From the NCBI RefSeq assembly GCF_041146345.1, contig NW_027191402.1:310001-374000 (forward strand): 64,000 nucleotides of DNA, given 5' to 3'. A program made the translations under genes and the position numbers. Within the stretch, counting starts at the first letter, position 1. Each line of letters begins with the position of its first letter. This stretch comes from Neodothiora populina (lineage: Eukaryota). The notes below the pieces were generated by a model. The model saw only the letters and a program-made list of their open reading frames with translations. It did no database searches and was not told where the DNA came from. This document shows positions 52,733 to 54,853 of the stretch, piece by piece.

Positions 52733-53119
52733 GGTTCTTGCGAGGGAATCGAGCCGTGTGCGCGAGAGACTTCAGCAAGGATCGACGTATAGCATTGGTG
52801 GTTGATTTGGGTTTGAGTGTCCAATCATGGCGAGGTCAATACTTTTAATCTGTCCATATCGATCAATAGTTCGTGTTAGATGTGTTGTAATGGCACGAGG
52901 AATAGAAGAGAGGCGGAAACGACCTCACGTGACCTGACCTTCGGCTTGACTTTGTTTCTGTCTTGCTGTAATACAACGTCCAAGCCGGGGATGTCTGAGC
53001 TTCCCGTCCGCGTCTACAGTACAGTTACATTGCTGAATGCTTGATCTTGCGCCGGGACATCACAATCACCACTTTTTGTCTTCTACCACTCAGTCAGAGT
53101 GTGTCCAGAGTAATTCAGG

Positions 53120-53964
53120 ATGCCTAAATATAAGTACTCGTCCTCCGAAGTTTGTCGCATTGTGTACTGACATTCTTAGCACTCTTCTGTAGGTTTCCAC
53201 GCCATGGACTATGCGACTGGTGAGGGCAAGACCGAAAGGAATGGAACTAACACACCACCTTGCCAGGCGATTATTGCGATGTCTACCTCACTCACGACTC
53301 GATGAGCGTGCGAAAGGCCCATAACAGCGGTCGCAACCACCTGCGAAACGTAGTCGACTATTACCAACGTACGGGGACAACCAGCTTGACAGATTATGCA
53401 GTGTTTCTGACTTTGGACATGTAGAGATCGGACACGAAAAGGCACAATCAGTGATTGATTCCATCACTGCATCATACACAGATGCGGGACAAGCCAGTCA
53501 GAACCCCATGCTCCCTGGGAATGGACCTATGGGCGCTGGAGGTTTCGGTGGCATGCCTCCGTTTGGCTTCCCTCCCGGTGGTACGCTATACAAATCGCAT
53601 TGCATACTTTCATATGTAGGAACTAACGCCGTCATCAGGTATGCCGCCTCCACCTTTCGGTGCAGCTGGAGGCCCTCCTGGACCCGCTGGACGAGGCATG
53701 CCTCCCTTCCCATTTCCTCCCACCGGCATGCCATTCCCTCCACCAAACATGCCGTTCCCACCTCCGATACCCGGCGCCGCAGGCTCGCCGCCCGCAGGAA
53801 TGCCCTTCCCCCCTCCCGGAGCACCTGGGGCTCTTCCCTTCCCACCACCGAACATGGCTGGCGGAGTACCCTTCCCTCCCCCGAACATGGGCGGACCTAG
53901 CCCGATACCCGGCGCACCGATCGCACCTCCTTCCGGTGCCAGTCTGGATCCCAGACGGCAATAG
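53120..53964 (+). CDS. YHC1: U1 snRNP protein C; exons 53120-53129, 53183-53188, 53267-53368, 53425-53580, 53639-53964 (intron 1 is AT-AC)
   Basis: Spliced product is [53 protein letters not shown] (matrin-type zinc finger) plus a Pro/Gly/Met-rich tail. Confidence 0.95.
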
Positions 53965-54572
53965 ACGAAGCGCGCTTGTTTCTGCTTAGCGACTAGAACA
54001 TGGGGAACAGCGGTCTGTCGGTCTCTGATGGACTGGGAGGCAATGGGGTCATGGGCGGCGTTCAGGCGATGATATTGGGACATGCAAAGCCACGGCTGGA
54101 AAGACATTCAAAAAAGGGCGTCATGAGGATTTGCGCAGGGAAAGAAAAGGATTGTAGAAATAAGAGAATAGAGCTTCTGCTTCGAGCAAGAGTGGGCAAT
54201 GGGCGCCTTGCAAGAAAGATTACCACTGTCCTTGGACGGATGATGTGATTCATATGTCTAGCTGCTTTATATGTGTCGTGCTCAATCTCATCTGCGATCC
54301 AAAATACTCGTGACACAGTCAAGTATGTCACACCAACACTACTTACTGTATGGCAAGAGTACCTCAAAGGCGAGCCATAACGACGCCAAGCTACTGTACT
54401 GTACGGAGACTGTAGTTCTACTGTATCTTACCCCAGAGCTCGTCTTCGGAGCCCGGAAAATGACATTTGAGACAGACACTCAGGCCCGTCGATAAGATAA
54501 GCTACTCTTGGCTGCATGCATTCCCTCTGGTGGTGTAGTTACTGCTGCATGTGACGTCTATTGTTCTTGGTC

Positions 54573-54594
54573 TATACATATTTATATATATACA

Positions 54595-54625
<31 letters not shown>
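54573..54625. repeat. Imperfect (TA)n microsatellite
   Basis: Read directly from the sequence. Confidence 0.9.
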
Positions 54626-54629
<4 letters not shown>

Positions 54630-54853
54630 TTATACGACAGCATTGAACTGCAATACGAACTGCAGTCTCTGGCTTGGAAGACTACGGAGCCTTGAACCTG
54701 CTGTATCTCTAGGGATCAAACAACGACCGATCCCGAGGCTCGACTGTAGTTCCGAGGGTGTCTGTTGCAGGTGTATCGACTTACGATACCGCTATAACGA
54801 TACAACGAGGAAAAGAGTGAGACCAGAGGATAAGAACCCAGAACAAAAACACA

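Follow-up and report, generated by a model that had tools for sequence, protein, structure and literature searches.

Few kinds of intron are as rare as the U2-type AT-AC introns, and most of the known cases lie in animal sodium-channel genes, which are hard to manipulate. Sheth 2006 (PMC1557818) counts 15 of them among about 186,000 human introns, the animal cases given there being SCN4A, SCN5A, other sodium-channel genes, and TAF2. According to this survey and Gould 2016 (PMC5029451), the metazoan members share a strong /ATAAGT consensus. For fungi, Sheth 2006 (PMC1557818) mentions only "hypothesized" cases in xylanase genes, and AT-AC ends are described as rare in fungal annotations by Frey and Pucker 2020. 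An engineered AT-AC intron is reported to be spliced in yeast (Gould 2016, PMC5029451). In yeast and human, a change of the first intron base from G to A is rescued by a change of the last base from G to C, with splicing being less efficient (Sheth 2006, PMC1557818). A 2024 review ties this rescue to a contact of the first nucleotide with the last one during exon ligation.

Here, an AT-AC intron is described in a fungal gene for U1C, the protein that helps U1 to read 5′ splice sites. U1C is essential in yeast and human, and the gene is presumed to be essential in the fungi that carry the intron. The gene lies in a 64-kb stretch of DNA that was analysed as a whole and is called the window. The segment 53130-53182 is, with high probability, a genuine U1C AT-AC intron that is removed by the U2-dependent spliceosome, joining T53129 to T53183. 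The U2-type ("type II") AT-AC intron as a kind is known; the U1C intron is a deeply conserved case that sits beside a 6-nt micro-exon. A description of an AT-AC intron in fungal U1C was not found in open-access papers and preprints.

Gene structure

The features of the gene are collected in Table 1. Taking out introns 1 and 2 joins ATG CCT AAA T, TCTTCT, and GC GAT..., which together encode the conserved U1C start MPKFFCDYCD. The borders of intron 1 cannot be slid by a single base, as T53129 stands against C53182 and A53130 against T53183. Behind the branch site, the intron continues as ATTCTTAGCAC up to its end at 53182. Introns 1 and 2 are both in phase 1, and skipping of the micro-exon would give an in-frame product (MPKCDYC...) without Phe4-Phe5.

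Table 1. Features of the U1C gene in the window
Feature	Position	Strand	Remarks
Exon 1	53120..53129	+	ATG CCT AAA T, encoding M P K and base 1 of Phe4
Intron 1, 53 nt, AT-AC	53130..53182	+	orthologue cut at exactly these borders in a relative's transcript contig (L005)
Intron 1 donor ATAAGT	53130-53135	+	
Intron 1 branch site ACTGAC	53166-53171	+	branch A 53170, at 12 nt from the intron end
Intron 1 last bases AC	53181-53182	+	intron ends GCAC
Micro-exon TCTTCT, 6 nt	53183..53188	+	rest of Phe4, Phe5, base 1 of Cys6
Intron 2, 78 nt, GT-AG	53189..53266	+	donor GTAGGT, branch CTAAC 53247-53251, acceptor CAG
Exon 3, U1C zinc-finger core	53267..53368	+	starts GC GAT TAT TGC; Pfam PF06220 match
Intron 3, GT-AG (GTACGG...TAG)	53369..53424	+	position of the intron that is missing from L005 and L077 compared with genomic L002
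Exon 4, ending ...FPPGG	53425..53580	+	3′ border approximate: donor 53581 or 53578
Intron 4, GT-AG, predicted (GTACGC...CTAAC...CAG)	53581..53638	+	frame change between ORFs
Exon 5, proline-rich C-terminal part	53639..53964	+	ORF 53620..53964; stop TAG 53962-53964

The identity of the gene is illustrated by its third exon, which alone matches the Pfam family zf-U1 (PF06220) over profile positions 7-38 of 38 (E 4.9e-17, 61.9 bits against a cut-off of 22). The six profile positions that are missing from this exon are exactly those encoded by exon 1 and the micro-exon. The N-terminal U1-type C2H2 zinc finger by which U1C (Yhc1) is defined is present, and the protein has 550 homologues at E <= 0.001, with PF06220 found in all of the best 120 listed. 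The exon 4 region is 98% identical to a database protein (P0012), and the closest named protein among the matches listed for the middle region belongs to Rachicladosporium (64% identity). Intron 4 is without a counterpart in Aureobasidium-like loci, and the genomic locus L002 has no intron at that place. The end of exon 5, ...DPRRQ, is common to the window and two relatives (P0122, P0142). The nearest metagenome loci are L049 and L069. A GT-AG locus (L001) also seemed close to the window, which could be traced to chance similarity in read-through intron 3 and does not reflect kinship.

Canonical splicing does not account for the protein start. All paths with one or two GT/GC..AG introns of at least 35 nt were enumerated from ATG 53120 into exon 3, and 12 of them keep the frame without meeting a stop. 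None of the 12 gives the conserved start, in line with the first-pass annotation of this DNA, which had stated that no GT-AG reading from this ATG would do so. The nearest canonical route removes 53154-53266 from a poor donor (GTCGCA) and adds seven residues. Stepwise canonical splicing through nested or recursive introns, without any AT-AC step, was likewise rejected, because the final ligation would still have to join T53129 to T53183 at a junction that cannot be slid.

Conservation of the intron ends and taxonomic spread

Metagenome contigs were scanned with the 57-aa ORF that holds exon 3. Among 583 pattern matches, 335 were confirmed as relatives; the 80 loci listed out of these were analysed, so that 81 sequences including the window were parsed from the start codon to the DYCD codons. 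At the position of intron 1, AT...AC ends are found in 39 of the 81 (the window and 38 loci, with 29 distinct intron sequences). GT...AG ends are found in 33 and GC...AG ends in two, amounting to 28 distinct sequences for GT and GC together. Five transcript-like loci have no intron 1 (L005, L044, L046, L068, L073), and two end before the start codon (L041, L054). Among the 74 intron-bearing sequences, the mixed combinations AT...AG and GT...AC do not occur at all. The covariation of AT/AC and GT/AG is therefore perfect, which agrees with the proposal of the first-pass annotation that both ends changed together, and the orthologue alignment that it had called for finds AT..AC kept in 38 related loci. 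With the same ends at the same codon position in all of these loci, the pattern is far beyond chance.

Conservation is confined to the splicing signals. ATGCCNAAAT occurs in all 29 distinct AT-AC sequences, and the micro-exon reads TCTTCT or TCTTTT in every AT-AC locus (TYTTYT in the GT-AG loci). When the 29 sequences are aligned, the interior of the intron is saturated, while A1, T2, G5, T6, CT.AC, and the final AC are invariant, and the micro-exon and the donor that follows it are invariant or nearly so. The same alignment contains no conserved sequence beyond the donor, the branch site, AC, the micro-exon, and the next donor, and RNAalifold predicts no pairs (0) for intron 1 across the 29 sequences.

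Annotated proteins carry a second record of the intron ends. Errors in gene models are informative here because failed models translate intron DNA, and the read-through of mis-predicted models was classified in 221 database proteins taken from two listings of the best 120 matches each. The intron and the micro-exon defeat gene predictors to such a degree that only 61 of the 221 listed U1C proteins have the correct start MP[KR][FY][FY]CDYC. Ten begin with MPKY.., corresponding to a donor T-ATAAG that was read through, and six of these ten additionally contain HSSVG, YSSVG, HSFVG, or LFCR, as expected when AC-TCTTCT-GTAGG is translated. Seventeen contain ..VFC.., which stems from read-through of AG-TCTTCT, and two of the 17 begin with MPKC.., the signature of a GT donor. 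Mixed signatures (AT with AG, or GT with AC) are absent from the 221 listed proteins.

The AT/AC signatures come from three classes, namely Dothideomycetes (Rhizodiscina lignyota, Aureobasidium sp., Microthyrium microscopicum), Eurotiomycetes (Aspergillus terreus, three Penicillium, Polytolypa hystricis), and Lecanoromycetes (Lambiella insularis). GT/AG signatures come from Botrytis sinoallii (Leotiomycetes) and from Gaeumannomyces tritici and Nemania serpens (Sordariomycetes), and models of Hypocreales (MPKFFCK...) indicate that intron 1 is absent there. The class was looked up for six of these species. On the evidence of these named taxa, the double change most likely arose once, in the ancestor of Dothideomycetes, Eurotiomycetes, and Lecanoromycetes. 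The gene tree of 219 coding columns is poorly resolved and requires six switches on the best tree, one of which is forced by well-supported branches. A single AT-AC clade is not rejected by the AU test on these 219 columns (p 0.465). The tree has no outgroup, and the direction, GT-AG first, was assumed.

The same comparisons bear on the accuracy of the sequence itself. If A53130 were an error for G, a GT-AG intron could end at the TAG at 53177-53179, which exists and would be in frame, and the product would start MPKSLFCDYC, a derivation of the first-pass annotation that proved correct. The chance of such an error is practically negligible, as A stands at this position in 38 other loci from many organisms, always together with AC. 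Of the 29 distinct AT-AC sequences, only three have AG at -5/-4. The product would also differ from the 61 listed proteins with the correct start in having an additional residue ahead of the first zinc ligand. A53130 is also read in a 156-nt unspliced contig that covers 52990-53145 with 0 differences at a depth of 3.8. This contig is one of two short unspliced contigs from X1, the single public run that holds the stretch (share 0.27). The run, which shows no splice joints and is not on record as RNA, is probably DNA and may come from the same source as the assembly, so that its A, the outcome of the suggested check in reads, is not independent of the assembly. The TAG lies 3 nt upstream of AC, and some AT-AG use at this site, giving MPKSLFC..., may occur in the window.

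Processed transcripts of a relative

Two contigs from an Aureobasidium-like fungus, L005 (1030 nt) and L077 (1045 nt), share 96.9% identity over 947 nt and have an identical 5′ leader. Both lack intron 3, which is present in the genomic loci L002 and L024, and hence derive from processed RNA. In L005, introns 1 and 3 are gone and intron 2 is kept, so that ATGCCGAAAT is directly followed by TCTTCT and GTAGGT. In L077, introns 2 and 3 are gone, and ATAAGT...CTGAC...CTAC is kept in front of TCTTCT. In this fungus, as seen in one contig pair, the AT-AC intron is cut out between AAAT and TCTTCT, as predicted, and the pattern of the two contigs implies that introns 1 and 2 can be removed in either order. 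At 96.9% identity the contigs may stem from two strains, and the genome behind L005 could in principle be without intron 1. As a control, L044 and L068, two transcript contigs with 99.6% identity to the genomic GT-AG locus L079, have the same exon junction. Gene models with the correct start MPKFFCDYCD are available for Aureobasidium pullulans (in a cluster of 61 sequences) and for Rachicladosporium, which means that the intron is already implicit in some public annotations. In the window's own organism, the 53129/53183 junction is expected from the sequence.

Architecture of the AT-AC intron

The AT-AC introns are built more tightly than their GT/GC-AG orthologues. They measure 49-56 nt, compared with 50-102 nt, and the branch A lies 10-12 nt from the intron end in 29/29 distinct sequences, compared with 10-30 nt. 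TAAGT occupies positions +2 to +6 in 26 of the 29 and in nine of the 28 distinct GT/GC-AG sequences. In front of the donor, Lys is encoded by AAA (A at -2) in 29/29 and 18/28, respectively. Fisher and Mann-Whitney tests on these AT vs GT/GC features are nominal in that they ignore relatedness. Differences extend into intron 2, whose donor begins with GTAG in each of the 28 AT-AC sequences that possess this intron and never does so in the 11 GT-AG sequences that possess it. As a consequence, AC is always followed by TCTTCTGTAG and then G, that is, by a pyrimidine run and TAG. Both introns and the micro-exon are kept in all 28 genomic AT-AC sequences; in the GT/GC-AG group, 17 of the 28 distinct sequences have lost intron 2 and 11 keep both introns and the micro-exon.

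Judged from these patterns, the tight build looks like a compensation for the lost +1 pair with U1. In addition, the 3′ end of the AT-AC introns looks as if it were chosen by its distance from the branch point and not by an AG.

Spliceosome type

AT-AC ends together with a fixed branch-to-3′ distance of 10-12 nt would also suit a U12-type intron that is removed by a minor spliceosome which has gone unnoticed in these fungi. A short and fixed distance of this sort is typical of U12-type introns. The internal signals make this reading exceedingly improbable. The 29 distinct AT-AC sequences have the donors ATAAGT (26), ATGAGT (2), or ATATGT (1) and never ATATCC, and their branch motif is CTGAC (20) or CTAAC (9), the ordinary fungal CTRAC that their GT-AG orthologues contain as well. 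The U12 donor ATATCC / ATATCCTT and a TCCTTAAC-like branch site are absent from the window and from the 29 sequences. With ATAAGT-type donors and CTRAC in 29/29, the assignment of the first-pass annotation to the U2 type and not the U12 type is strongly supported.

Its further statement that a minor spliceosome is not known in Pezizomycotina is in keeping with the surveys, which report none in Ascomycota or Dikarya. U12 splicing is absent from these groups according to Bartschat and Samuelsson 2010 and Larue and Roy 2023, and neither minor snRNAs nor minor introns are reported in Ascomycota in these sources. An Rfam scan gave 0 hits within the window, a result of little weight at only 64 kb. 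Dependence on the major spliceosome is thus suggested by the motifs in combination with the literature on Ascomycota.

Persistence of the AT-AC ends

Published work implies that an intron starting with A would fail in exon ligation if it did not also end with C, since its terminal nucleotides would pair in a non-Watson-Crick manner (G-G or A-C) during the second catalytic step. Such pairing would account for the joint difference of the two ends and for the absence of one-sided reversions among the 29 distinct AT-AC sequences. Were one end alone to revert, a defective pair (A-G or G-C) would result, so that both ends would be held by epistatic lock-in, and the remaining signals would be kept near-perfect to compensate. 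We give this combination of lock-in and compensating signals roughly even chances as the explanation for the persistence. A regulatory role is not required to explain why both ends are conserved, since an intron with one end reverted (AT-AG or GT-AC) should be defective in splicing.

The neighboring micro-exon invites an adaptive explanation. The AT-AC ends could be adaptive and not a frozen accident, in that a two-letter pairing code made up of the AT-AC intron and the GT-AG intron next to it would force the inclusion of Phe4-Phe5, and the invariant TCTTCT-GTAG would serve as a pyrimidine tract plus AG for early recognition of the 3′ site in an intron without its own AG. We regard this proposal as rather unlikely. 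In a weaker variant, the A+1 mismatch would make the synthesis of U1C depend on U1C-loaded U1 snRNP.

Taken by itself, the idea that orthogonal ends (AT-AC next to GT-AG) force inclusion of the micro-exon appears to have a small chance of being correct. By the first-last nucleotide rule of the literature, ligation between the AT donor and intron 2's AG would fail, and AC would be closed to the GT donor of that intron. In favour of the idea, both introns are in phase 1 and the skipped product stays in frame. The 28/28 genomic AT-AC sequences that retain introns and micro-exon, set against the 17/28 GT/GC-AG sequences without intron 2 and the loss of intron 1 in Hypocreales models, indicate that lineages without orthogonal ends have often dropped the micro-exon. 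Orthogonal ends are nonetheless not required, given that 11 distinct GT-AG sequences keep both introns and the micro-exon, and the contrast in intron loss may merely mirror lineage-wide loss rates.

The host gene is striking enough to suggest a sensor, in which a deliberately weak AT-AC intron would tie U1C output to the level or fidelity of U1C or U1 snRNP. In vitro, U1-C increases the affinity of U1 for certain mismatched sites, a +1 mismatch among them, and it touches the backbone of the 5′ splice site from -2 to +3 (Kondo 2015). In human cells, proteins of the U1 snRNP are cross-regulated through splicing (Rösel-Hillgärtner 2013, PMC3798272), and one transcript contig of the relative (L077) retains intron 1. 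Retention is not specific to intron 1, however, as L077 is balanced by L005, in which intron 2 is retained. Dependence on U1C would moreover amount to positive feedback and not to homeostasis, and published yeast work assigns most of the cost of A1 to the second step, in which U1C has no part. The intron has no conserved element other than its splice signals and no predicted consensus structure. Far from being weak, the splice signals that remain surpass those of the GT-AG orthologues in strength (ATAAGT in 26/29, CTRAC in 29/29, fixed spacing), which contradicts the selected weak intron of the first-pass annotation. As lock-in alone accounts for the conservation, we consider autoregulation through this intron very unlikely.

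Comparison with known systems

The distribution of the intron, with AT-AC ends in three fungal classes and GT-AG ends in two, repeats in nature the classic double-mutant experiment on the terminal intron nucleotides. The AT-AC lineages include easily engineered moulds and yeast-like fungi, in which two-base swaps could address 3′ site recognition without AG as well as expression cost, protection of the micro-exon, and sensing of U1C.

The closest relatives of the U1C intron in terms of signals are the animal U2-type introns. As described for these, AT-AC ends are combined with a U2-consensus 5′ site (/ATAAGT) and are kept for long by orthologues. Unlike them, the present intron is fungal, lies in the gene for U1C, measures 49-56 nt, is directly followed by a 6-nt micro-exon, and is matched at the same position in sister classes by a GT-AG intron. 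With the engineered introns of yeast and human, in which G1 was changed to A and the last G to C (Parker and Siliciano 1993 and later), it shares the same pair and the same rescue logic. The reported double mutants are less efficient laboratory constructs, whereas the U1C pair is natural and fixed across three fungal classes.

An AT-AC intron nested in RPL30 of Saccharomyces cerevisiae (Gould 2016, PMC5029451) is comparable in that it is spliced in an ascomycete without a minor spliceosome. The RPL30 event affects 1-2% of the mRNAs, uses a 5′ site unlike /ATAAGT, and is described as unproductive (PMC5029451). In contrast, removal of the U1C intron is needed for the protein, and the intron fits the U2-type consensus. 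The U12-type AT-AC introns resemble it in their terminal dinucleotides and the short branch-to-3′ distance and are distinguished by an /ATATCC donor and a TCCTTAAC-like branch motif, neither of which the U1C intron has. A final likeness is to the feedback systems of U1C/U1-70K in human (PMC3798272) and of U11-48K and U11/U12-65K (PMC5473595), in which an snRNP gene likewise carries an unusual splicing signal of its own. Those systems are reported to combine a conserved regulatory element with a defined unproductive isoform; in the U1C intron, it is the splice signals alone that are conserved.

Sequence features associated with AT-AC ends of intron 1

Among the loci listed, the AT-AC form of intron 1 is uniform in its geometry. 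The branch-point A lies 10 to 12 nt from the end of the intron in all 29 distinct AT-AC sequences, the window included, and 10 to 30 nt from it in the GT/GC-AG orthologues. The AT-AC introns measure 49 to 56 nt, against 50 to 102 nt in the orthologues with GT/GC-AG ends.

The Lys codon preceding the donor is AAA in 29/29 AT-AC sequences, so that its synonymous third base is invariably A; the listed GT/GC-AG sequences comprise 18 with AAA and 10 with AAG. This invariance is compatible with selection for a U1-pairing A at position −2. On the 3′ side, the intron-2 donor next to the micro-exon begins with GTAG wherever an AT-AC sequence contains intron 2, in 28 of 28 cases (the window and, at the same place, AT-AC loci within L002–L080, the related metagenome loci), as GTAGGT (19), GTAGGC (6), GTAGGA (2), or GTAGAT (1). 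This donor type occurs in 0/11 listed GT-AG sequences having intron 2. Because every AT-AC sequence with intron 2 carries the GTAG donor, TCTTCTGTAG/G (slash, splice site) always directly follows the AC of intron 1. The string resembles a pyrimidine tract with a consensus TAG acceptor. It may play a role in early 3′-site recognition of the AG-less intron 1.

Intron loss and other states of intron 1

Intron 2 is gone from 17 of the 28 distinct GT/GC-AG sequences (L016, L019, L020, L025, L028, L032, and others), which therefore have the micro-exon fused to exon 3. Hypocreales U1C models start with MPKFFCK (in the protein set with P0014, P0038, P0048, P0059, P0109, and P0120), and intron 1 has thus been lost there. 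Both introns are retained throughout the AT-AC group, in 28 of the 28 genomic sequences listed. Two relatives, L039 and L055, carry GC-AG ends (donors GCACGT and GCAAGA), a third state of intron 1.

Other features of the gene and its flank

An in-frame GT-AG alternative would join an internal donor to the intron-2 acceptor and leave the CxxC intact in its product. Given its poor donor and the lack of conservation among relatives, it is probably a chance occurrence. A predicted fourth intron of the window's gene, located within the Pro/Gly-rich part, is absent from Aureobasidium-like loci.

Coordinates of features at the U1C gene in the window
Feature	Position	Remark
Lys codon before intron 1	53126-53128	AAA
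Branch-point region to intron-1 end	53166-53182	
Micro-exon and start of intron 2	53183-53194	GTAG donor
GT-AG alternative	53154-53266	donor GTCGCA
Predicted fourth intron	53578-53638	two in-frame donors 3 nt apart
First donor	53578	G/GTGGTA
Second donor	53581	G/GTACGC
TA-rich simple repeat	about 54540-54650	3′ of gene; IYIYIY runs in ORF translations

Public U1C gene models

Among the 221 database U1C proteins listed, only 61 have the correct MP[KR][FY][FY]CDYC start, and the N-terminus is wrong in most public models. In many of the faulty models the start lies within intron 2 (..GDYCD) or at Met18 (MSVRKAH..); other models are in some cases fusions with neighboring genes (Penicillium, 592–780 aa), and three, from Hymenoscyphus, Tolypocladium, and Pyricularia, skip the micro-exon (MPKCDYC).
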